A DNA stretch of 32,000 nt from an archaeon (GTDB lineage Archaea > Iainarchaeota > Iainarchaeia > Iainarchaeales > CSSED10-239). This document shows positions 5,633 through 27,084 of this stretch, piece after piece. The number at the start of each line of letters is the position of its first letter. The stretch's first letter is position 1. The notes under the pieces are model-generated. The model made no database searches. It was given only the letters and a program-made list of their open reading frames with translations, and had not been told where the DNA came from. The DNA lies in assembly GCA_035400625.1 (NCBI GenBank), contig DAOMZT010000001.1:210001-242000 (forward strand). Direction: 5' to 3'. Position numbers and translations under genes: made by a program.

Positions 5633-6256
5633 TTATTTCTTTTTTATTTTTGACTTTGGTGGAAATGCCTTAAGAAAAGCATTTTCAAAATCTTCTAGTT
5701 TTTTGAAATTTGTTGCTAGCTTTTTATTTGCAATATCTACAATTAGCTTTAGATATTCTTCTGAGATAAGTTGTTTATTATTAATTTTTATGAGAGTAGA
5801 CATAAACACAGTGTGGGTCACTTCACAAGTAAAGCGCCCTTCTTTTGCACTGATTATGCCTGCTTTTTTAAGCCCTTGCTCTCTACAAAAATCTAAAATT
5901 TCTTTGGCCTTAGCGTAATCTTTTGTTGCAAAATGGAAAATAAATGGTTCGATTTTTAACCAAAGATAACCAGTATTAAAATTATTTATGTCTCTTTTTA
6001 TTTCCTCAAAAGTCACAAGTCTATGATAGCGATTAACAAACCCAGAAACCTTTTTGTTCTCGTCTTCATCTCCGCCAAGAAGCAGTAATCTGCCTGAACA
6101 GCTACTAGAAGTGTAAATGTCTGGTATTTCAGTAACCTTTAAAAGGAAAGGAATAACAAGAGAATCAACTAGATCTTTTGATATTGCATCTTTAAGTGTT
6201 TGAGTGTGGTGCTTTTTTAACATAGCAAATCTGGAATCAATTAGCTGTTTATTCAT
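5633..6256 (-). CDS. taw3: tRNA wybutosine/wyosine-derivative methyltransferase Taw3 (TYW3 family)
   Basis: It contains YTSSSCSGRLLLL, which matches the conserved (S/T)xSSCxGR motif of TYW3/Taw3. The start was placed at the ATG at 6256 (MNKQLIDSRF). The ORF-track start at 6322 is a TTG inside an AT-rich TATA-like region (tttataaat). Confidence 0.78.
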   Translation of the reverse strand: MNKQLIDSRFAMLKKHHTQTLKDAISKDLVDSLVIPFLLKVTEIPDIYTSSSCSGRLLLLGGDEDENKKVSGFVNRYHRLVTFEEIKRDINNFNTGYLWLKIEPFIFHFATKDYAKAKEILDFCREQGLKKAGIISAKEGRFTCEVTHTVFMSTLIKINNKQLISEEYLKLIVDIANKKLATNFKKLEDFENAFLKAFPPKSKIKKK

Positions 6257-8795: not shown

Positions 8796-9116
8796 ATGAG
8801 TGATAATAAAAACAATTTAATTAAAATGTTTACTGAAGAGCCTAAACTATTAGATGTTGTAAACTCCAATGAACACATGGCTGTTTTGAATATTTTAGAA
8901 CAAAATAGTGCTGATTTTCTTAACCTAAAAAAGGATTTATTGAAATACATATATATTAAAAAAGATATTATATTATATAATATATTAGAATCCCTTATTC
9001 AAAAGGACTTAATCAAAAAAATAGGGGTAAATGAAAACAAAGTTTATTACATTACAGAAAAAGGCAAAAAATTCATTAATTTGTACAAAGACACAAAAAA
9101 AGAATTTGAAATATGA
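8796..9116 (+). CDS. small winged-helix DNA-binding protein (ArsR/MarR-like), hypothetical
   Basis: This 106-aa ORF has the pattern AVLNILEQNSADFLNLKKDL...ILESLIQKDLIKKIGVNENKVYYITEKGKKF, typical of a wHTH with a wing. The stop codon is TGA. Confidence 0.5.
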   Translation: MSDNKNNLIKMFTEEPKLLDVVNSNEHMAVLNILEQNSADFLNLKKDLLKYIYIKKDIILYNILESLIQKDLIKKIGVNENKVYYITEKGKKFINLYKDTKKEFEI

Positions 9117-9583: not shown

Positions 9584-12500
9584 ATGCGATGGGTTGTTTT
9601 CATATCTGTATTGTTTCTTGTATTGCTTAGTGGCTGTTTGGATGTAATTACTACAAGACAAAAACAACTTTGTTTGTCCTCTACAGATTTTTCTAAAACT
9701 AGCATTCCAGACTGTAATGGTTTTTCTACTTGTTTTAAGAAAATAGATGGGGTAGGACTGATTGTTAATGACACGGCGCCTTTTGAAACCAAAAACAAGA
9801 TTTTAACATATAAGAATAACATAGCAAGCAGTGTTTATTATTTTAACAAAGCAGAAAAAGAAATACAAAAGATATATGCATATTGCTCTGGTCAAAACGA
9901 TTTAAAAATTATTAAAAATATTAATGATTTGATGTTTTATATTTCTAGGGTATTTAGTTATCAAGATTTGGCATGGCAGAAAAGCATAGAAATTCTAAAG
10001 GACTATGCAATATTTCTTAAATCGCAAGGTGTTGAAGAAATCACAGAAGAAGAAATTTACGGTTCTTTTGTTTTGATTAATCAAAATATTAATGAGCTAA
10101 GAGATGAAACTATAAATGATAAAACATATATTGGCATATTAAAAAAAGAAGCAGCGGCTGCAAGAGAGCTGGCAAGCAATTTTGGGTTTTTGAAAAGTTA
10201 TATGACTAGCATTAATTATGTGGATGTTTATGCTTATTATTCAGAATATGTTGATAACCCAGAACAAGAATTAAAGATACCTGTTATATCTAAATCAAGC
10301 AATTTTGTTTTTTCTAGGCTATCCACTATCGAGAACTTTCAAAGAATAAATACAAATCTTAAAAGAACAGACAATTATAATCTTTATATATTATTTGACA
10401 AACATATTGGTACACAAGACTCATTGTTTAGGAGATTTATAATACTTAATAACAAAATAAACAATGATCTGAAATTGGCACTAGACAGAATTGAGATGCT
10501 AGAAAAAGAAATAGAAAACAACCAATTAATTTTAGAGGAAACTAAAATTGAAGAATATAAAAAAAATAAACAAAATTATGATTCTGGGAAAATGGGGTTT
10601 GGATATTATCTTTCTTATCTAAAAGAACTTAAATTAGAGATTGAACAACAACTAAAAAACAAAGAAGATGTTGCAAAAATTGAAAATGAGAAAATTTCTG
10701 ATTGCAAGGCTTTTATTAAATCAATCAATGACTACAATAATTTGTATTTTAAGAATTTGATTTTGGATTTTGAAAAAGAAACAGACAACACAGCAAAAAT
10801 TGCAATTTGTGAAAAACTAAAAAAAGCACTTGACCAGGATGATTGTTTTTTAAATCTAGAAAAACTTATGGTTGCAGGGGTTGTTAGGGATATTAATGTG
10901 TATACGCATGAAGAGTGTGTTGATTTAGTTAATCAAATTAATTATAATGTAGGATATACAGACGAACTTGAGTTGTTTTGGAACATCTATTATGACTGCA
11001 GGAATATATTAGAAGAAATAGAGAAATTTAATTTAGATTTTGAAATACAAATTGATGTTGCGAAATTAAAGAATAGATTAAAAGAGTATAAGAATAAAAA
11101 CAATTATGAGATATATTTAGAAATTGAAGAAAATTTAAATGAAATAAATGCACTAAATAGAGAAATTAAAGAATTGTTTTTGGAAGTTATAAAATCCGAA
11201 ATAATTGATGGAAAGGAAATATATTACAAAAAAGGGGTTTATTATTTAAAACTTGTAAACTCATCAAATATCACGCTTTCTGATTTTTGTATAGATATTA
11301 GTGCCCTAGAATTAAGTGGCGCATCGTCTTTAACTAAAAACATGAGGATAAATCAAAAGACTGTTTGCTTTGATGAGTTGTATAGTGGCACAAATCTTTT
11401 TGAGATGGATTATGAAAATAAGAAAAACATAACTACACGTATAATCAAATTAGACATAGAAAAAACATTATTTGAAACGATTGTGAAAAATACAACTACT
11501 GGCATAAAAGACACATTATTTCTTGGACAGGCAGAAGTCGTGGATCCTGCAACTTATATATTAAATGAAAATGGAGAAATAGAATACACTACTCAAAAAG
11601 AGAACAAAATTTTGTATTACTTACGTATTTTTCAAAAGAACGATATTGATGTGAATATTGAGCAATATGGGGGTAAAGATCTTGTTGTGTTTGAAAAATA
11701 TAATTTAAAAAACACATATTCTGAAAAGGTTTGTGGAACGCTTTCTTTTGCTGAATGTAAAAGTGGGCTTGCAAAATTAATTATTAATGGTGTGAATACA
11801 GAGATCGATTATTATGCAAATATTGGTAAAATTAGTGCACCTTCTTGTTTTGAAAGGCATGAAACAAAAAGCATAGAAGCTTATTGTGCAACCGATATTG
11901 ATGAGCTTTTTGAAAAAACAAAAGATTTGATTATAAAAATGAACGCACTTATGAATAGCGAGTTTGAAGAGGTATCTAAAGAGAGTATTAGTGCCTTTAA
12001 GAGCGTGCACGATAAATACAACACAAAGGACACTTTTAGTTATGATGAAATAATGCAAATATTGAAATACTCATCAAAAATCGCAGAGCTTGAAAAAAGC
12101 CAAAATCTAAAAAGCGAATATTTAGAAAACACAAAAAGATTGCTTGCAGAAATTAGTGGTGTAAATGTAGGCGGAGAATACGATTCAGAGATTCAAAAAA
12201 TTGAAAAATTGTTTTTTACAGACCCAAAAACAGCACATTCTTTAGCAAAAAAGCTACTTGAAGATATTGTAAACTCCAATAATTTACTTGTAGAACTTAA
12301 AGAAAACAATTACGAAAACAAAATAAACAATCTAAAAGATCTTGCAAAAACACATGGCGTTTTTGATTTAGAATTACAAGAAAAATTTTTAGAATTAGAA
12401 AAAGCACCTGCTAACGATACTGCAATTACAGAATTAGAAAAATGTATAAATGAAAAAATAACTAAGAAAACTAAAGAAAATTTAGATTGGTTTGATTATT

Positions 12501-13108
12501 TTAAGAATTTTGATAAAACAGATTTTTCGGAAAAATTACAAGAAGTTGAATGGTATTATTCTAACATAGAAATTAAAGACCTTTATTCTGTTAAATATTA
12601 TCCTGCTGTTACTATTGATGACGTAATAAGGGCAAAGAAAAAGCTTGCATTTTTAGATACTGTAAAATATAAAGAAGAATCTACAAATATTTTGTATAGA
12701 TACGGAACTAAAAAAAATGAAGATATTTTGAATTCGATAAATGTTACAACAATAGAAAGATTAATGGATTTAAATAAAGAAATAGCAATGATAAATTCGG
12801 GAATCGCTCAAATAAAAAAGGATTCTAATTCTGCTCTAAATGATGTTTTGAAATCCAAGGCGCTTTCAAAAAATAAAGAAGTCATCGCAAATATAAAAAA
12901 AGACTACGAAAATAGGAACTATCTAAAAGTAATTTTTGATTCTAGGGTACTTTTAACAAAACAACCAAAAAACAACAGCACAAATTATAGTTCTTTGCTG
13001 ATTTTAGGGGTTATAGGGGCTATTTTGCTTATTTTTATAGTTAATAAAAAGCAACCTAAAAAGCTTAGCAAAGAGGAAAAGAAACAAAAGATATTAAGAC
13101 ATTATTGA
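9584..13108 (+). CDS. giant (1174 aa) surface lipoprotein-like coiled-coil protein with a C-terminal membrane anchor, hypothetical
   Basis: The N-terminus MRWVVFISVLFLVLLSGC is a lipobox-like signal, followed by a Cys-rich stretch. The body is long, K/E/N-rich and largely helical. The C-terminal hydrophobic helix (LLILGVIGAILLIFIV) is followed by a basic tail. A 3.5-kb open frame in an AT-rich genome argues strongly for real coding. Confidence 0.75.
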   Translation: MRWVVFISVLFLVLLSGCLDVITTRQKQLCLSSTDFSKTSIPDCNGFSTCFKKIDGVGLIVNDTAPFETKNKILTYKNNIASSVYYFNKAEKEIQKIYAYCSGQNDLKIIKNINDLMFYISRVFSYQDLAWQKSIEILKDYAIFLKSQGVEEITEEEIYGSFVLINQNINELRDETINDKTYIGILKKEAAAARELASNFGFLKSYMTSINYVDVYAYYSEYVDNPEQELKIPVISKSSNFVFSRLSTIENFQRINTNLKRTDNYNLYILFDKHIGTQDSLFRRFIILNNKINNDLKLALDRIEMLEKEIENNQLILEETKIEEYKKNKQNYDSGKMGFGYYLSYLKELKLEIEQQLKNKEDVAKIENEKISDCKAFIKSINDYNNLYFKNLILDFEKETDNTAKIAICEKLKKALDQDDCFLNLEKLMVAGVVRDINVYTHEECVDLVNQINYNVGYTDELELFWNIYYDCRNILEEIEKFNLDFEIQIDVAKLKNRLKEYKNKNNYEIYLEIEENLNEINALNREIKELFLEVIKSEIIDGKEIYYKKGVYYLKLVNSSNITLSDFCIDISALELSGASSLTKNMRINQKTVCFDELYSGTNLFEMDYENKKNITTRIIKLDIEKTLFETIVKNTTTGIKDTLFLGQAEVVDPATYILNENGEIEYTTQKENKILYYLRIFQKNDIDVNIEQYGGKDLVVFEKYNLKNTYSEKVCGTLSFAECKSGLAKLIINGVNTEIDYYANIGKISAPSCFERHETKSIEAYCATDIDELFEKTKDLIIKMNALMNSEFEEVSKESISAFKSVHDKYNTKDTFSYDEIMQILKYSSKIAELEKSQNLKSEYLENTKRLLAEISGVNVGGEYDSEIQKIEKLFFTDPKTAHSLAKKLLEDIVNSNNLLVELKENNYENKINNLKDLAKTHGVFDLELQEKFLELEKAPANDTAITELEKCINEKITKKTKENLDWFDYFKNFDKTDFSEKLQEVEWYYSNIEIKDLYSVKYYPAVTIDDVIRAKKKLAFLDTVKYKEESTNILYRYGTKKNEDILNSINVTTIERLMDLNKEIAMINSGIAQIKKDSNSALNDVLKSKALSKNKEVIANIKKDYENRNYLKVIFDSRVLLTKQPKNNSTNYSSLLILGVIGAILLIFIVNKKQPKKLSKEEKKQKILRHY

Positions 13109-13187: not shown

Positions 13188-14360
13188 ATGTTTAAAAAAA
13201 TAATGATATTAGGTATTTTGATGACTGCAATAGTTGCAGGAGTGGTTAGGGCCGATACACTTGAAGAAATGAGTTTTGCTTCATTAAATTATGATAACTT
13301 CAGTGTGCCAAGAGATAAAGAACTATGTAATACTTATTATTTTAATAAATTAAAACAAACAAATGACAGTGTTCTGTATCTTAATCTAATTATTGAAAAC
13401 TACATACCTGTTAAAGAAAAGCTAAGCGTTTCTGTTTATCTAAATGATGTGTTTGAAACAAAAATAGAAAATTCACATATATTAAAAGAAAACAGAATAA
13501 AATTTAAAGGCAGAATGAAAGAAAAAAACAATGTGAAGGTTTGTTTGTCAAACAATGTATTGCCTGTTGTAATTATTTCAAACAACAGTACATTAGGTAG
13601 TTATATTGTTGGAGAAATAACACCAGAAGATTTCTATATAAAAGTATTATCTACTCAAACATATAGTAATACGTTACTACCAATAGAGATTTATGCAGAA
13701 AATAATAGTCCAAAAGAGGTTGCTGTAAGTATTAATTATGCAAGTAAAGAGTTTTTGAGATTATCTAATTTAGAAACAGTTTCTGGAGAAACATCTTATA
13801 CTGGCGTAATATATCCTGGAGAAACAAAAATACTAAAATATTATTTAAAGACAAATAAAAATATTAGTTTTGGAACACCACAAGCAAATTTAACATACAC
13901 TAATGATTTTGGAGAGACAAAAACAATTTATGCAAAACAGAAAGTTATACAGATGAGAGAAAGATTAGATAAGATAGAAGTGTATGTTGATTTAGCAAGA
14001 AATGTAAATGTTAATGAAGAACAAAATGGAAAGATAATTATTAGAAACGTATCAGAAGATGAACTAAAAAACCTAACCATAGAAACTAGCTTTGATAACA
14101 AAGTAATTTTATCTGAAAGACAAATATCAGTTCTTAAGAAATATGAAGTTAAAGAAATACCATTTAAAACAACTATTGATTCAGTAGGTAATCATGTGTT
14201 TAATGTAACTGTGTATTATAATATTGGAGATGTAGAAAACGGAATATCTGCTGAAACTACAAATATCACAGCAGGTGTAAAAACAGATAATTTAAAAGAG
14301 ATTATTGGAGTGTTTTTATTTATAACAATAATTGTTTATATCTGGATTGTGAGATTTTAG
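13188..14360 (+). CDS. secreted beta-rich (CARDB/DUF11-like) surface protein with a C-terminal anchor, hypothetical
   Basis: It has a signal peptide (IMILGILMTAIVAGVVRA). There are many N-x-S/T sequons and beta-sandwich-like repeats (GKIIIRNVSEDELKNLTIETS..., HVFNVTVYYNIG). A C-terminal hydrophobic helix is present (IIGVFLFITIIVYIWIV). Confidence 0.65.
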   Translation: MFKKIMILGILMTAIVAGVVRADTLEEMSFASLNYDNFSVPRDKELCNTYYFNKLKQTNDSVLYLNLIIENYIPVKEKLSVSVYLNDVFETKIENSHILKENRIKFKGRMKEKNNVKVCLSNNVLPVVIISNNSTLGSYIVGEITPEDFYIKVLSTQTYSNTLLPIEIYAENNSPKEVAVSINYASKEFLRLSNLETVSGETSYTGVIYPGETKILKYYLKTNKNISFGTPQANLTYTNDFGETKTIYAKQKVIQMRERLDKIEVYVDLARNVNVNEEQNGKIIIRNVSEDELKNLTIETSFDNKVILSERQISVLKKYEVKEIPFKTTIDSVGNHVFNVTVYYNIGDVENGISAETTNITAGVKTDNLKEIIGVFLFITIIVYIWIVRF

Positions 14361-14363
14361 ATA

Positions 14364-16091
14364 TTAAATCCGTTTAAACATTTTTTCTAATTCTTTTCTA
14401 TTTAGTAAAAGGTATGTTGGTCTTCCATGAGCGCAAATGCCTTTGTCTTTACATTGATCTAATCTTTCAATAAGTTGATATATTTGAGAGATTGATAATT
14501 GCTCATTTGCTTTTATAGATTCTTTACAGGATTTTAATTTCAAGATCTTTTCTTTTATTCTGGACAAATCAAAATCTTTTGTATCTTCAATTTCATTTAA
14601 GATATTTAAAAAAAAGGTGTGGTCGAAATAATGCTCTAAAAATTCAGGAATGGTTGTAAGAATAAAGGTGTTATCTTTTGATTCTATTGTAAAGCCTAAG
14701 CTTAATAGCAGAGATTTATTTTGTTTTATAAATTCTTTTTGAGATTCGGAAATAAAATCTAGTGTTTTTGGGATCACTAAAGACTGGACTTTAAATTCTG
14801 ACTCGTAGAGGCGCCTATTTTTTTCTAGATTTATCCGCTCTTCTGCTGCATGTTGGTCGATAAGAAGCAATCCTTCTGGAGTTCTGCAAACTATAAATGT
14901 TTCAAAAAGCTGCCCGATTATTTCTCTAATCTCATAATTGGAAAGATATGTTTTTTTTATGTTGCTTACAGGTGGAGAGAGTGTTGATTGAACATTATTG
15001 TCGCGTAATTGGTATATTATTTCAGGGATTTCTGATTTTAATATATTTGCGTTTTTTTCTGTTTCTTTGTCGTCCAAAAAATAATGCAAGTTCTGAGAGG
15101 TACTTGCTGGTTTTTGCTCATGATCGCTTTTAGGAAACAGGGTATTTTCAATAATTTCTTTAAGCTTTAGATTAAATATAAATTCGTTTTGAATCTTAAC
15201 CAGTCTTTTTTTGGGGTGAACATTAACATCAAGAGTTTTTGAGTCTAGCTCTATAAATAAAACAAAAAATGGTTTTTGCTGAACCATTAAGTAATCTTTA
15301 TAGCATTTTTGAATTAACTTGCTAATTGATGTACTATAAACCGCCCTTTTATTAATATAAAGATAATTGCTAGGGTAAAAGAAATAGTTATTTGGCTTTG
15401 TGATTATACCTTTGATTTTTAGAAACTCATTTTTTGCATCTATTTTTTCGACTTTTGTTAAAATGTCTTTTCCAAAAATTTGCTCGTACCTTTTATCTTG
15501 AGTAGTACTTGAAAATATTTCATCTTTTTTTTCAGAATTAAAATGAAATCTAATATCAGGGTATTGAATTACAAACTCCAAAAAAGTATTATATAACTTT
15601 GAAAATTCCTGCGCTTTTGATTTTAGAAATTTCTTTCTTACAGGCACATTATAGAAAATATCTTCAACTTTAATTGTTGTTCCCTTTGGGCAAGCAACAG
15701 GAAAAGTCTTGCCTTCTTTTAAAACGTAACCTTTGCCATTTAAATTATCTGCAGAAGTTATTTCTAATTTAGATATTGCATTTATACTAGCTAATGCCTC
15801 TCCCCTAAAGCCAAAAGTGTCAAGATTATAAATATCATCAATATTTTCGAGCTTGCTTGTTGTGTGTCTTTGAGTACATATTTTCAAATCATCTTCTGAA
15901 ATCCCAGTGCCATTATCTTTTATCTCAAGTAAATCAACACCCGAATTTCTGATTTTTACTGTTATTTCTGTGGCATTTGCATCTATTGAGTTCTCTAATA
16001 GCTCTTTTAATATATCGCTAGGAGATTCAATTACTTCTCCTGCACTTATCAAGTTTATAGTTTCTTGATTTAATTTTTTTATGGTTTTCAA
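14364..16091 (-). CDS. mutL: DNA mismatch repair protein MutL (GHKL ATPase)
   Basis: The N-terminus LISAGEVIESPSDILKELLENSIDANAT is GHKL motif I. GFRGEALASI is also present, and the C-terminal domain includes CAHGRPT. The apparent TTG start at 16091-16089 overlaps the mutS TGA (sequence cTTGAaa), which suggests translational coupling. Confidence 0.92.
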   Translation of the reverse strand: MKTIKKLNQETINLISAGEVIESPSDILKELLENSIDANATEITVKIRNSGVDLLEIKDNGTGISEDDLKICTQRHTTSKLENIDDIYNLDTFGFRGEALASINAISKLEITSADNLNGKGYVLKEGKTFPVACPKGTTIKVEDIFYNVPVRKKFLKSKAQEFSKLYNTFLEFVIQYPDIRFHFNSEKKDEIFSSTTQDKRYEQIFGKDILTKVEKIDAKNEFLKIKGIITKPNNYFFYPSNYLYINKRAVYSTSISKLIQKCYKDYLMVQQKPFFVLFIELDSKTLDVNVHPKKRLVKIQNEFIFNLKLKEIIENTLFPKSDHEQKPASTSQNLHYFLDDKETEKNANILKSEIPEIIYQLRDNNVQSTLSPPVSNIKKTYLSNYEIREIIGQLFETFIVCRTPEGLLLIDQHAAEERINLEKNRRLYESEFKVQSLVIPKTLDFISESQKEFIKQNKSLLLSLGFTIESKDNTFILTTIPEFLEHYFDHTFFLNILNEIEDTKDFDLSRIKEKILKLKSCKESIKANEQLSISQIYQLIERLDQCKDKGICAHGRPTYLLLNRKELEKMFKRI

Positions 16092-18508
16092 GTGGTATTA
16101 CCTCTCTCTATACTTCTAAGAAAAGAATCGTTTTCTAGATCCTTTTGGATTTTTAATGCCCTATCAATTATTTCGTTGTTAATTCCTGCAAGTTTTGCTA
16201 CTTGTATACCGTAACTTTTGTTTATGCCCCCTTTTTGAAGTTTATGATAGAAGTGAATATTATTTCCTTCTTCTTTTGCTGTAACGTGATAATTGTTTAT
16301 GCCTGAAAATAATTCTGACATTTTGTTTAATATATGATAATGTGTTGCAACTAATGTTTTGCAACCAATTTTTTCATTTAAGTATTCTACAACAGACCAA
16401 GCAATACTTATGCCATCATATGTACTTGTTCCTCTACCAAGCTCATCAAGGATTACAAGACTATCTTTTGTAACATTATTTAAAATATAAGCGACTTCAG
16501 ACATCTCTACAAGAAAGGTACTTTAGCCATGTGTAATGTCGTCAGACGCCCCAACACGAGTAAAGATGGCGTCTATTTTGCCTATTTTAATACTTGATGC
16601 CGGAACAAAACAACCAGTGTGTCCAAGAATTAGTGCGAGACAAACACTTCTCATATAACTGCTTTTCCCTGCCATATTTGGACCTGTAATAATCATGGTT
16701 CTGTTTTTAGAATCCATATAACAATCGTTAGGAACAAAGGCAATTTGTCTCTCAATCAAAGGGTGCCTCAATTCAGTTATTTCAAGCACATCTGAATTAT
16801 TTAGTTCTGGTTTGTTGTAATTGTTTTTATAACTTATATATGCAAAAGAATAGATTTCATCAAGTTCTGCTATTTGTTTTGCAATTTCTCTAATAGGTTC
16901 TTGATATTTTAATATTTCTTTACACACCTCAAAAAAAAGATGATATTCTAGTTCTTCTCTTCTTTCTTTTGCATGCATAACAAGAGATTCTTTTTCTGAT
17001 AATTCTAATGTAGTATATCTCTCACAATTAACAAGCGTTTGTTTTCTTTCAAAATATTCAGGGACACAATTTATTTGAGATTTAGGTATTTCTATATAGT
17101 AACCAAACACTTTATTGAATTTTAGTTTTAAAGATTTAAGATTTGTTTTTTGGCGAAGATTTGCTTCGTATTCTGAAAGCCATTTATTGGTTGATTTGTT
17201 TATATTCACTATATCATAAAGTTCTTTAGAGTAACTTGGTTTGATAAATCCCCCTTCTCTAATACTTATTGGCGGTGAATCGACAATTGCAGAATCTATT
17301 AAGTCTACAATCTTATCAAGATGTTGTAGTCTTTCTTTAATTTCATGAAGTTTAGGGGAAGTTGTTTCTGAAAGTACTATTCTTATACTAGGTATTACTT
17401 GTAAACTTTGCTTTAAGCCTATCAAATCTCTTGGATTACAATTGCCAAAGCCAATTTTACTAATTATTTTTTCTAAATCGCCAATATATGAAAGGTTTTG
17501 AGATAGCTCTTCTTGCAAAAATTGGTTTTCTTTAATTTCAGAAACAGCATCGTAGATTTTTAAAAGTTCAGATTTACCTGTCAATGGATGTAGTAGATCA
17601 AAATATAATTTTCTATAACCTAATGCTGTCTTTGTATTATTTACAATGTCAAAAAGTGTGTGTTGAGTGGTTCCGTCTTTGAGATTTGAAACAATCTCTA
17701 GATTATTTGCTGTCTTTCTGTCTATTCTAATATATTTTGTTAAATTATATTCTTTTATATTATTAATATAAGATAATGACATGAATTGAGTGTCTTTAAG
17801 ATATTTTATTGCATTATAGCAAGAGATAAAAACTTCTTCTTTGTTTATGCCAAATGAAGAAAATAACAATCCAAAATGTTCTTGTAATTTTTGTTTAGAC
17901 AAATCATGGTCAAGATTGTCTGTATAATTAATAATTACATTTGGTATTGTTTTCTTTAAAAGATTAATTTGATCAACATCATTTAATATGTTTCTAGTAA
18001 TAATTAATTCTTTTGGTTTAATTAGAGACAATTCATTTAGAATTTCATTAAAGCTTTCGAAATTGTTTGCTTTAAAATCTCCTGTTGTTATATCTATTAA
18101 AGAAAAACCACAATAGTCTTTTAACCGCGATATAGAACAAAGATAGTTGTTATCATAGGTTTCTGAAAAAATTGTGCTAGGTGTGACAATCCTTGTAACT
18201 GCCCTTTTTACTAAACCTTTAGCAAGTTTAGGGTCTTCTATCTGTTCACAAATTACTACTTTTTTACCTGCCTTTATTAACTTAGATATATAAGGGTCGA
18301 TTGCATGATATGGGATTCCAGCTAATGGAGCTTCGGTCGCGCCCTTACCTCTTTTTGTTAATGTGATATTTAGAATAGAAGAAGCGATTTTTGCATCATC
18401 ATAAAACATCTCATAGAAATCTCCTGCTCTAAATAACAATATTCCATCAGGAAATGCTTTTTTAGTTTCCAGATATTGTCTCATCATCGGAGTTAAATTT
18501 CTATCCAT
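16088..18508 (-). pseudogene. mutS: DNA mismatch repair protein MutS, interrupted by one in-frame TAA (16525-16523); fragments 16523-18508 and 16088-16504/16522
   Basis: The gene starts MDRNLTPMMRQYLETKKAFPDGILLFRAGDFYEMFYDDA (mismatch-binding domain). Walker A (GPNMAGKSSYMRS) lies in the upstream fragment. The reading ...RVGASDDITHG-TAA-STFLVEMSEVAYILNN...LVILDELGRGTSTYDG is collinear with the conserved MutS G-x-STF-x-x-EM and Walker B region. The ORF-track start at 18562 overlaps tRNA-Phe, so the ATG at 18508 was chosen instead. Confidence 0.88.
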
Positions 18509-18537
18509 GATTTCTTTTCTTTTAAAATTAGTAAATA

Positions 18538-18611
18538 TGAGACTGGTGGGATTTGAACCCACGACACATAGGTCTTCAGCCTATTGCTCTCCCAGGCTGA
18601 GCTACAGTCTC
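18538..18611 (-). tRNA. tRNA-Phe (GAA)
   Basis: The reverse complement is GAGACTGTAGCTCAGCCTGGGAGAGCAATAGGCTGAAGACCTATGTGTCGTGGGTTCAAATCCCACCAGTCTCA. It forms a 7-bp acceptor stem, a GTTCAAATC T-loop and the anticodon loop CTGAAGA. Confidence 0.9.
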
Positions 18612-18785: not shown

Positions 18786-18848
18786 GAATTTTTCACTAAA
18801 ATTTTTATTGGTCGAAATATATATAATTAATTAGTGTATATTATATTT

Positions 18849-19394
18849 ATGACGCAAAATATTTATAAACTTACTATACTTCGTTTAGACCATAGGCCAT
18901 ATAGAGATAAAAGGATTACAACGCATTGTGCGTTGGTTGGTAGAGCCTTTGGAGCTGATGAGTTTTACTTTTCAGGGGTAGAAGATTCTGGCATAATTAC
19001 TGTAATTACCAAAACTAATGAGAATTGGGGCGGTAATTACCAGATAAAGTTTGTAGAAGATGCGTTGTCTTTTACAAAAGAATTTAAAGAAAAAGGGGGG
19101 GTTATTGTTCATCTTACGATGTATGGACTTAGAGCTCAAGATAAGATAGGAGAAATTAAAAAACTAAAGAAAACTAAAGATTTACTTTTGATAATTGGTG
19201 GGGCAAAAGTGCCTTCAGAATATTTTCAATTGGCAGATTATAACATAGCAATCAGCAATCAACCACACAGCGAGGTTTCTGCTCTTGCTTTAATGCTTTA
19301 TTTAATAGACAATTCTTGCTTATATAAAGAATTCAGTAATTGTAAATTAAAGATAGTGCCAACCAATAATTTAAAAAAAATAATAAGAAAATAA
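18849..19394 (+). CDS. trm56: tRNA (cytidine56-2'-O)-methyltransferase aTrm56 (SPOUT family)
   Basis: LTILRLDHRPYRDKRITTHCALVGRAFGADEFYFSG matches the archaeal Trm56 N-terminal signature (LRLGHRPERDKRVTTHVAL-x-ARAFGA). The start was set at the ATG at 18849; the track start at 18834 is a GTG. Confidence 0.85.
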   Translation: MTQNIYKLTILRLDHRPYRDKRITTHCALVGRAFGADEFYFSGVEDSGIITVITKTNENWGGNYQIKFVEDALSFTKEFKEKGGVIVHLTMYGLRAQDKIGEIKKLKKTKDLLLIIGGAKVPSEYFQLADYNIAISNQPHSEVSALALMLYLIDNSCLYKEFSNCKLKIVPTNNLKKIIRK

Positions 19395-20053: not shown

Positions 20054-20166
20054 ATAAAAAATATTATTTTTATTGAATTTTCAAAATAGAATTTATTTAT
20101 ATTTCTTTTGTATAATAGATATATTATAACCTTCAAGAAAAACTAATTATTTGTGTTTTATCTAAT

Positions 20167-20241
20167 AGCGGGGTGGGGCAGTCTGGAGTGCCCGTCGGGC
20201 TCATAACCCGAAGGTCGATGGTTCAAATCCATCCTCCGCTA
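20167..20241 (+). tRNA. initiator tRNA-Met (CAU), archaeal type
   Basis: The sequence is AGCGGGGTGGGGCAGTCTGGAGTGCCCGTCGGGCTCATAACCCGAAGGTCGATGGTTCAAATCCATCCTCCGCTA. It has an A1:U72 terminal pair and three consecutive G:C pairs (GGG/CCC) closing the anticodon stem, which are archaeal initiator hallmarks. The anticodon loop is CTCATAA. A T5 tract follows at 20244-20248. Confidence 0.9.
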
Positions 20242-20401
20242 TATTTTTGAATTAAAGGATTTTTTAATCGTTTTTCTAACTAATTTACAACCTTATTTTT
20301 AATTAAAAATCTACTAAATCTTGGACACAATTAACAATTTTAATAAACACCAAAATAAAGCGAGAAAATGTAAAAAAACAGCTATTTTTCTAAATATTTG
20401 A

Positions 20402-20480
20402 TAAAAACAAGCTTTATTTTACAAAATAACTAAAAACGCACCTTATTTTTACAAAAATAGTAATAAAAACCTTTATTTGA
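20402..20480. repeat. three imperfect tandem approx. 29-33 bp A/T-rich repeats (iteron-like)
   Basis: The units are TAAAAACAAGCTTTATTTTACAAAATAAC (20402), TAAAAACGCACCTTATTTTTACAAAAATAG (20431) and TAAAAACCTTTATTTGA (20464). A related copy, ccttattttta, lies at 20291-20301. An inverted copy, caaaataaagcg, lies at 20351-20362. Confidence 0.6.
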
Positions 20481-20483
20481 TTG

Positions 20484-20813
20484 GTAATTACTAGAAAGTA
20501 GATAGTAATTACTGCAAAAACCATTATATTTTAGAGGTTTTTAAAAGTCATTATACATAATAAATTTAGGGGTTTTACAGACATAAATAAACCCGCTTTG
20601 GTAATTACTGTAATAACCGTAAAGGGGGTCATATAATTACCGTAATTACCAATCCCTTTAAAATAATTACGGTAATTACTATAATATACTATGAGTAATA
20701 TATTTAAAAAATTATTAACAAAATTAGGGCTTCTTAAAAAAAGTAAAAATCAAAAGAGAGATGGTAATTACCAAGAAACTTTTGCAAATAACAATTATAA
20801 CTCAAGTAATTAC
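20484..20813. promoter_or_regulatory. array of the 8-bp palindrome GTAATTAC (7 perfect plus about 3 one-mismatch copies), a probable operator or binding-site array
   Basis: Perfect copies start at 20484, 20505, 20601, 20642, 20672, 20764 and 20806. Near-copies are ATAATTAC at 20633 and 20663 and GTAATAAC at 20610. Two tandem dimers, ATAATTAC-C-GTAATTAC (20633-20649) and ATAATTAC-G-GTAATTAC (20663-20679), sit just upstream of the ATG at 20691. Confidence 0.6.
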
Positions 20814-21281
20814 TCTCAAAATCAATATCAATCAAATGAGACAATACAAAATACAAACAATAACACAAACACTATATCAAAAACAAACACAATACAAAAT
20901 ACAAACACAATGCAAACACAACAACTTAAATTAAAAAATTTAAATATTAAAACAATAAATAACGAAAAAGAAATTGATAGTACTAAAATATATGATTTTT
21001 CAAAAATCAGTAATGAAAAAATAAATACTATTTGGGATATAATTAAAATTAGAGAAAATACCCAAGCAGAACATATAATTACTTGTCTTCCTGATGATGA
21101 ATGGGTTGATATGGAAGATTTGAAAAACAGAATAAAATTACAATACAATGTAGAATATCAAAATGAGAAAAGCCTTTATCCATACATAAAAACATTAACA
21201 GACATAAATCTAATAAAAGTAAATAATTCAGGGAAAAAAAGAACTTGGAAAAAAAACATTATAATCATAGACAGAGAATGA
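20691..21281 (+). CDS. hypothetical protein: basic N-terminus, N/Q/T-rich low-complexity region, C-terminal wHTH-like domain
   Basis: The ORF is 196 aa. Residues approx. 24-80 are NNNYNSSNYSQNQYQSNETIQNTNNNTNTISKTNTIQNTNTMQTQQ. The C-terminal part (EWVDMEDLKNRIKLQYNVEYQNEKSLYPYIKTLTDINLIKVNNSGKKRTW) looks like a helix-turn-helix plus wing. Confidence 0.55.
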   Translation: MSNIFKKLLTKLGLLKKSKNQKRDGNYQETFANNNYNSSNYSQNQYQSNETIQNTNNNTNTISKTNTIQNTNTMQTQQLKLKNLNIKTINNEKEIDSTKIYDFSKISNEKINTIWDIIKIRENTQAEHIITCLPDDEWVDMEDLKNRIKLQYNVEYQNEKSLYPYIKTLTDINLIKVNNSGKKRTWKKNIIIIDRE

Positions 21282-21314: not shown

Positions 21315-22013
21315 TTAGAGTGTTTGGCTGTTTGGATTTTCTAAGTTTTCTTTAGTTGTAGGATCATCTTTATTTGCAGAATTATCCTTTGGTGTGTAAT
21401 CAAATATTTCTTTTGCTTTATCAAATAACGAAATTAATAATTTTACATTTTCAGAAGATTCTTTTGTTTTATCTACCCAATCAATTTCTAAAATTTTATT
21501 AATTTTAGATATTAAATTATTTTTATTTGCTTTTTTAAATTTTGAAGCATACTCTTTATCATTTATTATTTTATTTAATTCATCAATTAACTTTGTGTTT
21601 TTTCCATCTATTGAAATTACAAATATAGAATTTATAAAATCGTCAATTGTTTTTATAATATCTTCCTGATTGATTTCTATTTTTTCAATATCATAATTTA
21701 TAGACCATTCTCCTTTTTCTTTAAAATTATGTATTGGACTTTTACCAGTATTAAAAAAATTAATAATTTTATGTTCTGTATTAATTGGAATAATAATACT
21801 ATTTTTTCCAGGCCTTATATAAGGTATATCTTCTAAAACACCTGCTCTATAATACCAATATGTCTTTTTGTCTTTTTTAGTAACATTTTGAGTGTATCCA
21901 TAAATTGATCTAAACATTTTTTGATATAGATAAGATGAATGTTTTATATTATCATTAAATATAAACTTATATTTTATATAATTACTAATTATTTTATCCA
22001 TGTCTGCCCCCAT
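21315..22013 (-). CDS. hypothetical protein (232 aa)
   Basis: The frame is open and K/N/I-rich, and I recognise no family. An alternative start is the ATG at 22001 (MDKIIS), preceded by GGGGG. The C-terminus is acidic/polar (DNSANKDDPTTKENLENPNSQTL). Confidence 0.5.
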   Translation of the reverse strand: MGADMDKIISNYIKYKFIFNDNIKHSSYLYQKMFRSIYGYTQNVTKKDKKTYWYYRAGVLEDIPYIRPGKNSIIIPINTEHKIINFFNTGKSPIHNFKEKGEWSINYDIEKIEINQEDIIKTIDDFINSIFVISIDGKNTKLIDELNKIINDKEYASKFKKANKNNLISKINKILEIDWVDKTKESSENVKLLISLFDKAKEIFDYTPKDNSANKDDPTTKENLENPNSQTL

Positions 22014-22277: not shown

Positions 22278-22643
22278 TTATCTTCTTCCAGCTGTTGAAT
22301 ATTTGCTTTTATAGCCAATATACTTTCTTCTTATTTTTGCATCATGATTATTATCTTCTTCTTCAACTACTGGTTCTCTAACAACTTGTCTTTCAGCTAC
22401 TGGGACATTTCCTGAGTTTATAAGAATAATATCATCAACAGATATAACTTTCTTATATGGAATACTATGCTCTGTCATTATCTTTTTAGCCTCTTTCTTT
22501 GAGCTAACTTTTAATGGCTGAGTAGTAATAGTTTCTATTACCCCAGATTCTAAGTTTACAACTAAATCATAAACCTTTCCTCTATATGTAGCATTAGTCT
22601 CATAAAGATCCATACCGAATAGTTTTGAAATTCTCATTGTCAT
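22278..22643 (-). CDS. PRC-barrel domain protein with a charged C-terminal tail
   Basis: MTMRISKLFGMDLYETNATYRGKVYDLVVNLESGVIETI...VISVDDIILI has the PRC-barrel pattern. GGAGG (plus-strand cctcc, 22652-22656) lies 8 nt upstream of the ATG at 22643. The track start at 22658 is a TTG within the RBS. Confidence 0.65.
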   Translation of the reverse strand: MTMRISKLFGMDLYETNATYRGKVYDLVVNLESGVIETITTQPLKVSSKKEAKKIMTEHSIPYKKVISVDDIILINSGNVPVAERQVVREPVVEEEDNNHDAKIRRKYIGYKSKYSTAGRR

Positions 22644-22816
22644 GTTTTCTTCCTCCAAATATTAAATATATAATATTATTATACTAAAAGGTTATACAAA
22701 GGGTTTATATACATTACTATTTCTAAAAATAAAAATATTATTTAAAAAAGTTAACTTTCTTAACCTTAATTTTCTTGATTTTACATACAATACAGGAAGT
22801 GTGCGGGTAAGATAAA

Positions 22817-23896: not shown

Positions 23897-26890
23897 ATGG
23901 CTACTAACCAAATAATCAATAGAAATGAGGAGAAAATCCCATATAATATATTCAAAATAAAATTAGCTATTCTTAAGGCTCTTGATGCAATAGACAACCC
24001 AGATATTGATCTTGCTGATTATTTAACAAAGAAAGTTGATAGAATATTATCACAAGAATACTTTGAAAAAGAAAAGTTACCAACTATAGATAATATTCAA
24101 GATATTATAGAAGACGTTTTGATTAAAGAAGGCTTAACAAAATTAGTAAAAGCATATGTAATCTATAGAAAACAACATGATGATTTAAGACAAATGTCTA
24201 AATTAATAGACAGCATAAATGCGGTTGAAAGTTATATTAATATTTCTGATTGGCAAGTTAAAGAAAATAGCAATATGGACTATTCTCTTCAGGGCCTAAA
24301 TAATTACTTGTCCACAAAAGTAATTTCTGATTATTGGATAAAAAAAATATATCCTCCAGAGATTAAAGAAGCACATGAGAAAAGACAACTACATATTCAT
24401 GATCTAAATACTTTAGGTCCTTATTGTGTTGGTTGGGATCTTCAGTCTTTACTTCAAACAGGGTTTAGAGGAGGGCCTGGTAAAATTGTTGCTGCTCCTC
24501 CAAAGCATCTGGATACTGCTCTTGGGCAGATTGTAAATTTTATATATACATTACAAGGCGAAGCTGCAGGTGCCCAAGCATTTAGTAATTTTGATACTCT
24601 TCTTGCTCCATTTATTTATTATGATAAACTAGATTATAAGCAAACTAGAGCAGCCATAGAAAAATTTGTATATAACATGAATGTTCCAACAAGAGTGGGT
24701 TATCAATGCATGTCTGAAGATACAGAAATATTAACAGAAGAAGGTTGGAAAACACATGATGATATTAAGGTTGGAGACATAATTAAAACATTTAATATTA
24801 AAACAGGAAAGATAGAGGATTTGCCTATTAAAAAACTATTTGTTAGAGAATATTCTGGCAAAATGTATAATATAAAAAATAAAATACAAGATCAATTAAT
24901 TTCTCCAAATCACAGAATGGTAAGACAAACATCTAATTCAAAAAATAAATTTGTATTAGAAGAGGTAGAAAAAGTAATGGCCCTTAAATCGCCAATAATA
25001 CTGCCTATCGCGGCAGACACAAACTATAAAGGCATAGCTTGGAGTGATGAAAAAATTAAACTAGTTGCTTGGCTAATTGCAAGAGGGTGCTCTGAACAAC
25101 CACATCATAAAAATAAAAATTCAAGAAATATAAAAATATACCAATCAGAGATAAAAAACAATAAAGATAACAAAGAAATAAAAAATTTACTAAATCATTT
25201 TAATTTGAAATATTCAGAAAGTAAGCACAAAGCCCTGGGCATGTCAGTTAATTATTTTAAAATTAATGCAGAAGGCTCTAGGTTACTTCATTCTTGGTTT
25301 GATGATGAAAGTGATATTAAATTTATTCCTGTTGATTTATTCAAGGCAAATCAAAAACAAGCAAGATTGTTTTTAGAAACTTATAATAAAGTAGATGGCA
25401 CATCAGAGTTTAAGATATCTACAACTTCTGTTGATATGCTTTATGGCCTGCAGCACATGTGTGTTTTGGCAGGTTATGGTTTTACAACTTGTTTCAGAAA
25501 ACCAACAATTGGTAAGAAACCAATTTTTATTTTAAAAATAATTCAACATAAAGACACTACAATAACTTGTATTAAAGAAGTAAATTACAAAGGAAAAATC
25601 TGGTGTCCAAATACTGATAATGAAACAGTCATTGCAAAAAGAAATGGCAAGGTGTTTATTACAGGTAACACTCCATTTTCAAATATCACTTTAGACTTAA
25701 CAGTTCCTTCAACACTTAAAGATCAAGCAGTGATAATTGGCGGAAAGCCACAAGATAAAACATACGGAGAATTCCAAAAAGAAATGGATATCTTTAATGC
25801 TGCGTTACTTGATATATTTTATGAAGGAGATGCAGCAGGTAACATCTTTTCCTTCCCTATCCCAACAATAAATGTTACAAAAGATTTTGATTGGGATTCT
25901 CCTCTTTCTGATAAATTATTAGAACTTACAATAAAATATGGCACACCATACTTTGCAAACTTTGTTAATTCTGACATGAAACCAGAAGATGCAAGAAGTA
26001 TGTGTTGTAGGCTAAGGCTAGACAATAGAGAATTACAGAAAAGAGGAGGCGGTTTATTTGGCTCTAATCCTTTAACTGGTTCAATAGGTGTTGTTACAAT
26101 TAATCTTGCACAGATTGGGTATCTTGCAAAAACAGAAGAAGAATATTTTGAAAAACTAGGGTATTTAATGGATCTTTCTAAAAAATCTCTAGATATAAAA
26201 AGAAAGATTGTTGAAAAATATACAGATGATGGCTTGTATCCTTATTCAAAATTTAATTTAAAATTAATAAAAGACAGATTTGGAAGTTACTGGAAAAATC
26301 ATTTCTCAACAATTGGACTTCTTGGCATGAACGAGTCTTGTCTAAACTTTTTAGGCGAGCCAATAACAACTCCAAAAGGCAATGTTTTTGCTAATAAAGT
26401 TATGGATTTTATGAGAGAGAGGATACAGAAATACCAAGAAGAAACAGGCGCCCTTTATAATCTTGAAGCAACACCGGGAGAAGGAACAACGTATAGATTT
26501 GCAAGCCATGATAAAGCTAAGTTCCCTTCAATTATTGTTGCAAATGAAGAAAATGTGCAAAAAAATGGAGCACAGCCATACTACACAAACTCAACACAAG
26601 TTCCAGTAAATTATACAAATGATATTTTTGAAATATTAGAATTGCAAGATGAATTACAATGTAAATATACTGGCGGAACTGTGATTCATTTCTTTATAGG
26701 AGAAAAGAAACCATCAAAAGAGGCAATTAAGTCTTTGATTAAAAAAATAACTACAAATTACAAATTACCATATTTTACATTTACTCCGACATTCTCAATT
26801 TGCCCAAAACACGGCTATTTGTTTGGAGAACACGAATATTGTCCAAAATGTGATGCAGAAATTGGTTATTTGTCTAAATCAAAAAATTAA
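23897..26890 (+). CDS. nrdD: anaerobic ribonucleoside-triphosphate reductase NrdD (class III) large chain, with an N-terminal ATP-cone and an intein; lacks the glycyl-radical C-terminus
   Basis: The ATP-cone is INRNEEKIPYNIFKIKLAILKAL...YVIYRKQHD. The NrdD core includes HIHDL, GAQAFSNFDT, TPFSNITLD and FSFPIPT. The C-terminal zinc ribbon is FSICPKHGYLFGEHEYCPKCD. The ORF then ends in a tandem stop, TAA TAA (26888-26893), before any R-V-x-G-Y/F motif. Confidence 0.9.
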   Translation: MATNQIINRNEEKIPYNIFKIKLAILKALDAIDNPDIDLADYLTKKVDRILSQEYFEKEKLPTIDNIQDIIEDVLIKEGLTKLVKAYVIYRKQHDDLRQMSKLIDSINAVESYINISDWQVKENSNMDYSLQGLNNYLSTKVISDYWIKKIYPPEIKEAHEKRQLHIHDLNTLGPYCVGWDLQSLLQTGFRGGPGKIVAAPPKHLDTALGQIVNFIYTLQGEAAGAQAFSNFDTLLAPFIYYDKLDYKQTRAAIEKFVYNMNVPTRVGYQCMSEDTEILTEEGWKTHDDIKVGDIIKTFNIKTGKIEDLPIKKLFVREYSGKMYNIKNKIQDQLISPNHRMVRQTSNSKNKFVLEEVEKVMALKSPIILPIAADTNYKGIAWSDEKIKLVAWLIARGCSEQPHHKNKNSRNIKIYQSEIKNNKDNKEIKNLLNHFNLKYSESKHKALGMSVNYFKINAEGSRLLHSWFDDESDIKFIPVDLFKANQKQARLFLETYNKVDGTSEFKISTTSVDMLYGLQHMCVLAGYGFTTCFRKPTIGKKPIFILKIIQHKDTTITCIKEVNYKGKIWCPNTDNETVIAKRNGKVFITGNTPFSNITLDLTVPSTLKDQAVIIGGKPQDKTYGEFQKEMDIFNAALLDIFYEGDAAGNIFSFPIPTINVTKDFDWDSPLSDKLLELTIKYGTPYFANFVNSDMKPEDARSMCCRLRLDNRELQKRGGGLFGSNPLTGSIGVVTINLAQIGYLAKTEEEYFEKLGYLMDLSKKSLDIKRKIVEKYTDDGLYPYSKFNLKLIKDRFGSYWKNHFSTIGLLGMNESCLNFLGEPITTPKGNVFANKVMDFMRERIQKYQEETGALYNLEATPGEGTTYRFASHDKAKFPSIIVANEENVQKNGAQPYYTNSTQVPVNYTNDIFEILELQDELQCKYTGGTVIHFFIGEKKPSKEAIKSLIKKITTNYKLPYFTFTPTFSICPKHGYLFGEHEYCPKCDAEIGYLSKSKN
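24707..25669 (+). mobile_element. intein (321 codons) with a LAGLIDADG-type homing endonuclease domain, inserted in nrdD
   Basis: The host sequence VPTRVGYQ | TPFSNITLD is interrupted by CMSEDTEILTEEG (block A, Cys1) and ISPNHRMV (block B, T/S-x-x-H). KLVAWLIARGCSE and ARLFLETYNKVDGTS are the two LAGLIDADG-like motifs. The insert ends ...IWCPNTDNETVIAKRNGKVFITGN, and the +1 residue is Thr. The insert is in frame (963 nt). Confidence 0.85.
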
Positions 26891-26934: not shown

Positions 26935-27084
26935 ATGGAAACAGGATTAGAAAGTAAAAGACAGAAATGCGAAGTATACTCTAGAGTAGTAGGCTTTGTA
27001 AGAAGAGTTGATGCTTGGAATTACGGCAAGCAAGCAGAATTTAAAGACAGGAAATTATTCAAGGTAGAGGAAAATAACTGTTAA
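26935..27084 (+). CDS. 49-aa stand-alone glycyl-radical module corresponding to the NrdD C-terminus
   Basis: My own translation is METGLESKRQKCEVYSRVVGFVRRVDAWNYGKQAEFKDRKLFKVEENNC*. SRVVGF followed by W-N-x-G-K-x-x-E-F-x-D-R matches the NrdD glycyl-radical signature (R-V-x-G-Y ... WN-x-GK-x-x-E). The candidate radical Gly codon is at 26992-26994. The ORF is in a different frame from nrdD and is absent from the ORF track because it is under 60 aa. Confidence 0.8.
   Translation: METGLESKRQKCEVYSRVVGFVRRVDAWNYGKQAEFKDRKLFKVEENNC

Follow-up and report, generated by a model that had tools for sequence, protein, structure and literature searches.

Introduction

Several archaeal repressors with a winged-helix or helix-turn-helix (HTH) domain regulate their own genes from operators that overlap the TATA box or the transcription start, including Phr of Pyrococcus, MDR1 of Archaeoglobus, LrpA, NrpR and RosR. 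The DPANN archaea are uncultivated, and to our knowledge almost nothing has been learned about their gene regulation; we know of no regulator-operator pair that has been characterised in the phylum Iainarchaeota. Here we analyse a 32,000-nt stretch of DNA from an archaeon of this phylum (GenBank assembly GCA_035400625.1, contig DAOMZT010000001.1, positions 210,001 to 242,000 of the forward strand), referred to throughout as the window, in which a dense array of the 8-bp palindrome GTAATTAC lies in front of and inside an open reading frame (ORF) for a 196-residue protein, ORF196. A preliminary description of the window had taken this array for a multi-site operator, a partition site or an origin-type array bound by a dimeric protein, with the product of the adjacent gene as the obvious candidate. 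We find that the gene and the array most likely represent an orphan regulator family together with its operator, new to the family libraries and to the literature searched, in which queries for the motif, for the family and for DPANN or Diapherotrites regulators returned no description.

ORF196 resembles the archaeal repressors named above in being a small protein with a predicted winged helix whose presumed operators are palindromes surrounding the TATA box and the start of the gene that encodes it, where bound protein would be expected to occlude the TATA-binding protein (TBP) and transcription factor B (TFB) or the recruitment of RNA polymerase; RosR is also among its structural matches in Foldseek. 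It differs from them in having no sequence relationship to any of them (no Pfam or NCBIfam match), in its layout, where an amphipathic helix and a disordered linker precede the C-terminal winged helix, in an array of up to 10 or more phased sites of which some lie in coding sequences, and in the near-invariance of both motif and protein over an entire phylum. The best structural matches of ORF196 are the DNA-binding domains of Fur, and the array recalls the 19-bp Fur box (GATAATGATAATCATTATC) in consisting of AT-rich, overlapping or tandem short repeats along which several dimers can line up. Unlike Fur, however, ORF196 has neither a Fur dimerisation domain nor a metal-binding domain and gives no match to PF01475, so that it does not belong to the Fur family; its winged helix is C-terminal rather than N-terminal, with a disordered N-terminal part, and no regulon is visible in the sequence sampled (~12 kb per genome).

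Two further groups of systems share individual features with the locus. As in parC/ParR of R1, tubC/TubR and SegB of Sulfolobus, the repeats flank the core promoter of the gene for their (here presumed) binding protein and can be present in many copies, with expansion in some lineages, and TubR is itself a winged-helix protein that appears among the fold matches of ORF196. In contrast to these systems, no gene for a motor nucleoside triphosphatase (NTPase) is adjacent, the locus is chromosomal and single-copy, and most species have only 1–3 sites. In Bacillus, the nucleoid occlusion protein Noc uses an amphipathic helix at its N-terminus to bring DNA to the membrane, and ORF196 likewise has a basic amphipathic helix at its N-terminus followed by a predicted sequence-specific DNA-binding domain; this domain is not ParB-like, however, and the sites are clustered at one locus instead of being scattered over the chromosome.

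A palindrome array at the ORF196 gene

Ten perfect copies of GTAATTAC occur in the window, starting at 9644, 19002, 19033, 20484, 20505, 20601, 20642, 20672, 20764 and 20806, against an expectation of 0.80 (100 dinucleotide shuffles, maximum 4, none reaching 10), and seven of the ten fall within the 330 bp from 20484 to 20813. The exact count thus returned every one of the seven array positions and three outlying copies that the preliminary description had collected by eye, and it bore out the strong local enrichment claimed there. As a same-genome background we used 49.2 kb, made up of the window and of flanks from contigs carrying window proteins, which holds 11 perfect copies: the seven of the array, two inside the aTrm56 gene and two isolated singletons, one at 9644 and one in the left flank. 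With only these two singletons outside the array and aTrm56, clusters of GTAATTAC are not a general feature of the AT-rich DNA of this organism; the opposite outcome, common clusters, had been named beforehand as fatal to a specific role. Chance and base composition are ruled out as the source of the array by the shuffles, the same-genome background and the k-mer ranking described below. The array and its gene comprise the following elements:

20484 to 20491: distal single site S1 (tGGTAATTACt), 207 nt 5′ of the ATG
20505 to 20512: distal single site S2 (aGTAATTACtg), 21 bp (two helical turns) from S1
20601 to 20617: doublet D3, GTAATTAC-T-GTAATAAC, weaker, with a degenerate second unit; its start is 32 bp upstream of D2
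20633 to 20649: doublet D2, ATAATTAC-C-GTAATTAC, proximal to the TFB recognition element (BRE), ending 7 nt upstream of the TATA-like element
20657 to 20664, + strand: predicted TATA-box-like element TTTAAAAT, 34 nt before the ATG
20663 to 20679: doublet D1, ATAATTAC-G-GTAATTAC, between the TATA-like element and the start codon
20691 to 21281, + strand: gene for ORF196, 196 aa, an orphan of an Iainarchaeota-restricted family
20764 to 20771: intragenic site S6 (GGT AAT TAC = Gly-Asn-Tyr, in the linker), 92 bp from the D1 unit at 20672
20806 to 20813: intragenic site S7 (AGT AAT TAC = Ser-Asn-Tyr), 42 bp from S6

D2 and D1 are the two tandem dimers, 13 bp apart and just 5′ of the ATG at 20691, that the preliminary description had reported, and S6 and S7, both perfect copies of GTAATTAC, are the two sites that it had placed in the 5′ coding part of the gene. 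In an alignment of the intergenic region, S1 is kept in every close relative while its flanks drift, and the 20–22 bp spacing class to which S1 and S2 belong is found again across loci. The position of D2 is retained in all loci of the AT-rich clade. Relatives keep S6 as (G/S)NYQ, and both intragenic sites, encoded as GNY and SNY codons, persist despite a linker that is otherwise poorly conserved.

Putative recognition unit, promoter layout and helical phasing

Across lineages, the element next to the promoter takes the form GTAATTAC-N-GTCATTAT, which becomes GTAATGAC-a-GTCATTAC in loci L036 and L047 and ATAATTAC-N-GTAATTAC in the clade of the window. These forms are best described together as a 17-bp element of 8-1-8 design, and the functional unit therefore looks like the palindrome GTAATKAC-N-GTMATTAC, of which the 8-bp palindrome would be one half. 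The centres of the half-sites lie 9 bp apart, a spacing that fits a winged-helix dimer.

Among close relatives, TTTAAA or TTTATA is invariant at the TATA position between the two doublets, and the doublet-TATA-doublet-ATG order is kept. In 59 of 79 loci, the stretch from the TATA-like element to the ATG contains a site-like unit. The ATG of the window follows the TATA-like element by 34 nt and has no Shine-Dalgarno sequence, which, given what is generally known of archaeal promoters, implies a leaderless or near-leaderless transcript with a start predicted from sequence. Archaeal repressors classically block the recruitment of polymerase from a site located between the TATA box and the start. 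D1 occupies such a position and D2 abuts the TATA-like element from the other side, so that the layout agrees with that of archaeal operators overlapping a promoter, with the TATA element and the start both being sequence predictions. A sigma-70 promoter scan of the window DNA, which is not relevant to an archaeon, gave results at chance level.

The distances between perfect sites cluster at 20–22, 30–33, 41, 50–52, 82 and 92 bp, and half-turn offsets are nearly absent. The best-fitting period is 10.3–10.4 bp with R = 0.75 (109 spacings from 38 distinct architectures, identical ones collapsed), and although the locus counts and the Rayleigh statistic with its nominal p-value overstate independence, the loci being phylogenetically related, the pattern does extend over these 38 architectures. 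Spacings of ~10.3 bp × n would place the sites on one face of the helix and thus indicate cooperative binding.

The motif and the gene are paired across the phylum

We scanned one genome per GTDB species, detected relatives of ORF196 in 146 genomes and fetched 80 loci of ~12 kb each. In 79 of the 80 loci, the ~250 bp preceding the homologue contain one or more perfect copies of GTAATTAC, and most of the 12-kb loci, whose GC content ranges from 20 to 51%, are nearly devoid of further copies. In an unbiased comparison of 8-mers, GTAATTAC ranked first, being present in 77 of 78 upstream regions (450 nt) and reaching 214 copies in 34.7 kb of upstream sequence vs 46 copies in 705 kb elsewhere, a 93-fold enrichment. 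Most species have 1–3 sites, all at the promoter, and the AT-rich clade that includes the window has 5–10 or more. Within the clade of the window, conservation of the intergenic region is confined to the sites, the TATA element and two short blocks, between which the spacers drift:

20313 to 20327, + strand: conserved non-coding block ACTAAATCTTGGACA, not a GTAATTAC site and the sole other strongly conserved distal intergenic element
20551 to 20563: conserved non-coding block TTATACATAATAA, also not a GTAATTAC site

Using a strict pattern of a TATA element plus a doublet (TTTAWAATAATTACNGTAATTAC), which targets with a different layout would escape, we searched 241 million metagenome records and obtained matches at 44 loci. 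At 39 of these the match directly adjoins a homologue of ORF196 and at two it belongs to an array that runs off the stored stretch (41/44), and the other three are unrelated singletons, two of them in a transmembrane ‘IITVIT’ coding stretch of an organism with 40% GC and the third in a genome with 15% GC. In the viral contigs of IMG/VR there is no homologue of ORF196, and the 89 doublets present there are all isolated, none of them forming an array with other doublets. The search of related genomes suggested in the preliminary description thus recovered the palindrome array throughout the phylum, and the proposal that it serves a DNA-binding protein, likeliest the product of the adjacent gene, is supported by the pairing of motif and gene in 77 of 78 species-level loci, by the 41 of 44 strict-pattern matches at this gene and by the winged-helix model described below. 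On these grounds, we infer that the array is very probably the specific binding-site array of ORF196.

Two annotation problems concern the homologues and their loci. In P0032, P0043 and L020, the database gene starts lie too far upstream, and the operator has been translated into false N-termini (‘IITVIT’, ‘GNYGNYQ’). Loci L017 (JAQUUM010000105.1, ‘Bacilli bacterium’), L023 (NZ_JAEDAM010000051.1, ‘Candidatus Vampirococcus lugosii’), L077 and L084, from bins labelled as bacterial or as other archaeal, have the full Iainarchaeota gene order (mutS, aTrm56, TFE, ORF196, ORF232, PRC-barrel, xerA) and are probably mis-binned.

ORF196 is a predicted winged-helix protein of an orphan family

The protein is divided into three parts:

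residues 2 to 17 (20694 to 20741): basic amphipathic helix MSNIFKKLLTKLGLLKK; AlphaFold2 places a helix at residues 2 to 11
residues about 20 to 102: linker, disordered and N/Q-rich in the window, of varying length in the family
residues about 110 to 190 (21018 to 21260): winged helix, a ~90-residue domain in AlphaFold2 with a predicted local distance difference test score (pLDDT) of about 88

The character of the N-terminal helix is kept throughout the family, with a mean hydrophobic moment of 0.67 (0.51 in a control segment) and a net charge of +3. The C-terminal domain is modelled by AlphaFold2 with helices at 124–132, 141–152 and 163–171 and strands at 175–178 and 185–188, the topology of a winged helix. 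Within it, NTQA.H, RSLYPY[IL]KT and the wing residues R..W.K vary little or not at all, and RSLYPY[IL]KT, which is invariant, forms the putative recognition helix. A Foldseek comparison with the PDB gave the DNA-binding domains of Fur, BlaI, PadR, RosR and ArsR/SmtB as best matches (root-mean-square deviation about 2.5 Å over about 70 residues), with weak E-values of about 4e-3 and no sequence family to back the fold; against viral models, it returned generic winged-helix proteins including TubR.

In sequence searches, ORF196 had no match in Pfam, NCBIfam, PADLOC or the PDB sequences, hence in no curated HTH or winged-HTH family, and in PHROGs only a sub-threshold match (E = 0.008) to a family of unknown function. 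The ‘wHTH-like’ label of the preliminary description accordingly holds at the level of the predicted fold and fails at the level of sequence families. A collection of 5.8 billion proteins contains 86 relatives, which are unnamed or ‘hypothetical’ apart from some spurious names assigned automatically. Among 1.84 billion cluster representatives, a profile search found only 40 clusters, 36 of them at an E-value of 1e-10 or better, and its weak tail consists of short fragments of 43–101 residues, with no remote relatives. The family is therefore compact and restricted to the phylum.

A model for cooperative autoregulation

We propose, with a probability that we put at roughly 0.65, that the array mediates cooperative negative autoregulation of the ORF196 gene by its own product. 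In this model, the 17-bp doublet would be the recognition unit for a winged-helix dimer. One doublet would lie between the TATA box and a leaderless start and a second would abut the BRE/TATA region from upstream, with a third doublet and four single sites further upstream and within the initial 125 coding nucleotides, all separated by ~10.3 bp × n and hence presented on one face of the helix. As ORF196 accumulates, it would bind these sites cooperatively, and the bound protein would block the recruitment of TBP/TFB or of RNA polymerase and so repress its own gene. The identity of the binder, its dimeric and cooperative mode of binding, the sign of the regulation and the transcription start are all predictions from sequence features, and the fold of the C-terminal domain is predicted from its structural model. 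Among the three functions originally considered for the array, the operator is the best supported, with doublets that flank the TATA box and sit between it and the start codon.

If this model is correct, ORF196 would be a new family with an ordinary mechanism. As a candidate regulator-operator pair, it is a clean and directly testable one, since the 17-bp element and the promoter are both defined and the domain of ~90 residues should pose little difficulty in expression, and it is conserved over a phylum that spans the GC range given above.

Several observations weigh against this model or go beyond what it explains, in addition to the weak fold matches and the kinship among loci already mentioned. 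Simple autoregulation needs 1–3 sites, the number present in most genomes, whereas the AT-rich clade has 10 or more. In loci L019, L020 and L022, the stop codon is closely followed by 2–3 sites, and in L023 an array of five sites is located 2 kb upstream, between mutS and the tRNA genes. In L078, two genes have been inserted between tRNA-Met and ORF196, and their coding sequence contains seven sites, where 0.26 would be expected for the whole locus. We also found no covariation between protein and motif: L036 and L047, with their GTAATGAC/GTCATTAC half-sites, have an unchanged recognition helix, although with motif and protein both nearly invariant the comparison is uninformative. Finally, amino-acid changes in aTrm56 (18834 to 19394) create sites, specifically:

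18993 to 19009: satellite doublet ATAATTAC-T-GTAATTAC
19032 to 19041: satellite single site GGTAATTACC, 31 bp from the doublet

This doublet and single site follow the same design as the main array, so that the copies at 19002 and 19033 are not background. They occur only in the window and its three closest relatives, in which the protein reads GIITVIT...GGNYQ; at the same positions, aTrm56 of the sister lineages reads TIIEVLS...GGDFK. Selection at the DNA level thus appears to have changed the protein sequence of aTrm56 and to have overridden it.

Alternative roles of the array

These same observations would be accommodated if the array were a dual-purpose centromere-like or chromosome-anchoring site, at which a higher-order ORF196 complex positions or tethers the region, with autoregulation as a by-product, as at parC/ParR, tubC/TubR or SegB sites, and the basic amphipathic helix contacting the membrane, as in Noc, or a partner NTPase. 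The arrays of L078, L023, L019, L020 and L022 go well beyond the requirements of a promoter, extending over as much as ~2 kb, and residues of aTrm56 were changed in creating a doublet and a single site. The basic amphipathic helix followed by a disordered linker is found family-wide, TubR is among the fold matches, the PRC-barrel gene and xerA are in invariant synteny, and in Forterrea the locus lies about 8% of the genome from the origin. Nevertheless, there is no ParA, SegA or TubZ-like NTPase gene in the conserved neighbourhood, and in most species the sites number only 1–3 and are confined to the promoter. Oligomerisation would be an equally plausible function of the amphipathic helix, and the match to TubR is generic for winged helices. 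PRC-barrel proteins act in cell division and XerA in chromosome dimer resolution, and the links to both rest on these roles in other archaea. We therefore regard a dual-purpose site as unlikely.

The stronger version of this idea, to which we give slightly less credence, is an anchoring or centromere-like module specific to the Iainarchaeota, in which phased sites nucleate a multimer that the helix tethers to the membrane or to a partner and autoregulation is only a side effect. The PRC-barrel protein and XerA would then be candidate division or segregation partners of the ORF196 complex. Selection for more sites would explain their spread into coding sequences, the sites after the stop codon and the satellite arrays, and a structural role in anchoring or segregation would amount to a new archaeal system of that kind.

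It is improbable that the sites are operators of a different regulator for which the 196-aa protein is merely a regulated target. The connection between ORF196 and the motif is itself a prediction, no covariation between protein and motif was seen, and the window contains genes for further small winged-helix proteins, among them a PadR-like ORF at 8796–9116. Against this, the module occurs essentially only at the ORF196 gene in all the metagenomes sampled, and a regulator with a single target is nearly always that target's own product. The sole other gene of a DNA-binding type in the invariant synteny encodes TFE-alpha, a general factor, and ORF196 itself has a suitable predicted fold with an invariant putative recognition helix.

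An origin or secondary origin of replication, in which the palindromes would be initiator sites and the AT-rich spacer an unwinding element, is very unlikely. The conserved non-coding region of ~450 bp between tRNA-Met and the gene is unusually long for a compact DPANN genome and is AT-rich (24% GC), and about 30 higher-GC loci have a second repeat, ACTCACTT, as 2–4 direct copies, often with periods of 42 or 52 bp. However, the sites are placed precisely around the TATA box, the motif is unlike what we take to be the consensus of the origin recognition box (ORB) and mini-ORB, and neither the window ORFs scanned nor the ±10-kb flanks yielded an orc1/cdc6 gene, so that this is no recognisable oriC. 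In Forterrea (L020), which has the same array, the locus lies at 764–776 kb of 839.6 kb, about 69 kb from the origin next to cdc6. The complete Forterrea genome has the cumulative GC skew pattern of a single origin and terminus, with the origin adjacent to cdc6 taken as the genome start (PMC5905446). The origin-type array entertained in the preliminary description is disfavoured by this distant, skew-defined origin and by the lack of an orc1/cdc6 gene in the sequence scanned.

An att or iteron region of a mobile element integrated at tRNA-Met is hardly conceivable: the array begins about 240 bp downstream of this gene and a tyrosine recombinase is encoded 2 kb downstream, but the gene order, which does not vary among 80 species loci, is an ancestral chromosomal one, the recombinase represents the chromosomal XerA equivalog and not an element integrase, and there is no viral homologue in IMG/VR and no significant match in PHROGs or PADLOC.

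Two other candidates were rejected. A link to viruses or defence was discarded on the absence of a viral homologue, the occurrence of singleton doublets only in IMG/VR and the lack of anything significant from PHROGs or PADLOC. For a structured RNA element, no Rfam match was obtained even at E ≤ 1, and the sites lie mostly upstream of the predicted start; a fold z-score of -2.6 results from the palindromes pairing with each other.

Genomic context and further observations

The window is chromosomal DNA of an uncultivated DPANN archaeon, with a GC content of about 28% and archaeal gene content that includes aTrm56, TFE-alpha, NrdD, a class II ribonucleotide reductase and CDC48. Proteins identical to those of the window are present on metagenome contigs, including activated-sludge assemblies, and its GTDB relatives carry the labels Candidatus Iainarchaeum, Diapherotrites or ‘archaeon’. 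Locally, the genes are arranged in the order mutL(-), mutS(-), tRNA-Phe, tRNA-Lys, tRNA-Lys (-), aTrm56(+), TFE-alpha(+) and tRNA-Met(+), followed by the array, ORF196(+), ORF232(-), the PRC-barrel gene(-), xerA(-) and nrdD(+). From aTrm56 through TFE, tRNA-Met, ORF196, ORF232 and the PRC-barrel gene to the recombinase, this order is kept in all 80 species loci, and since the neighbouring proteins of distant lineages are only about 30–60% identical to those of the window, it must be an ancestral chromosomal arrangement. The recombinase matches the chromosomal XerA equivalog model (NF040815, 278 bits, cutoff 220). Two of the flanking features are:

20166 to 20242, + strand: tRNA-Met gene, a conserved boundary on the upstream side of the array-bearing 448-bp intergenic region
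21315 to 22013, - strand: ORF232, convergent to ORF196 and in invariant synteny, another orphan found only in Iainarchaeota

ORF232 has a confident AlphaFold2 model (pLDDT 85), for which there was no fold match in the PDB and no family, and which offers no functional clue. The window has two PRC-barrel genes, at 2836–3114 and 22278–22658, and the latter is the one in phylum-wide invariant synteny with ORF196 and xerA.

The second repeat, ACTCACTT(TT), lies between tRNA-Met and the GTAATTAC sites on the strand of the gene, and its 7-mer ACTCACT is 56-fold enriched; examples are L076 (about 5636–5800), L087, L045, L082, L038, L054 and L034. In the window, the corresponding region (20243–20480) has no ACTCACTT and instead four CYTTATTTT-like repeats. 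Possible roles of ACTCACTT include sites for a second binding protein, terminators or origin-like elements.

Elsewhere in the window, a 1174-aa ORF (9584–13108) and a 390-aa ORF (13188–14360) have no Pfam or NCBIfam match; the former includes, 60 nt from its beginning, the isolated GTAATTAC at 9644. The mutS gene on the - strand is split at about 16505–16525 (ORFs 16088–16504 and 16523–18562) by a CAA-to-TAA nonsense change. An otherwise identical contig, L001, encodes an intact MutS of 806 aa, and L003, L007 and L008 share the interrupted form, which may reflect a mutator polymorphism in the population. The nrdD gene is apparently split in all contigs into a 997-aa ORF (23897–26890) and, beyond its stop codon, a separate 49-aa ORF (26935–27084) with the glycyl-radical motif SRVVGF. 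The large ORF contains an insertion of ~320 aa beginning with ‘CMSEDTEILTEEGW’, which Pfam did not detect and which is intein-like, with an endonuclease-like segment.

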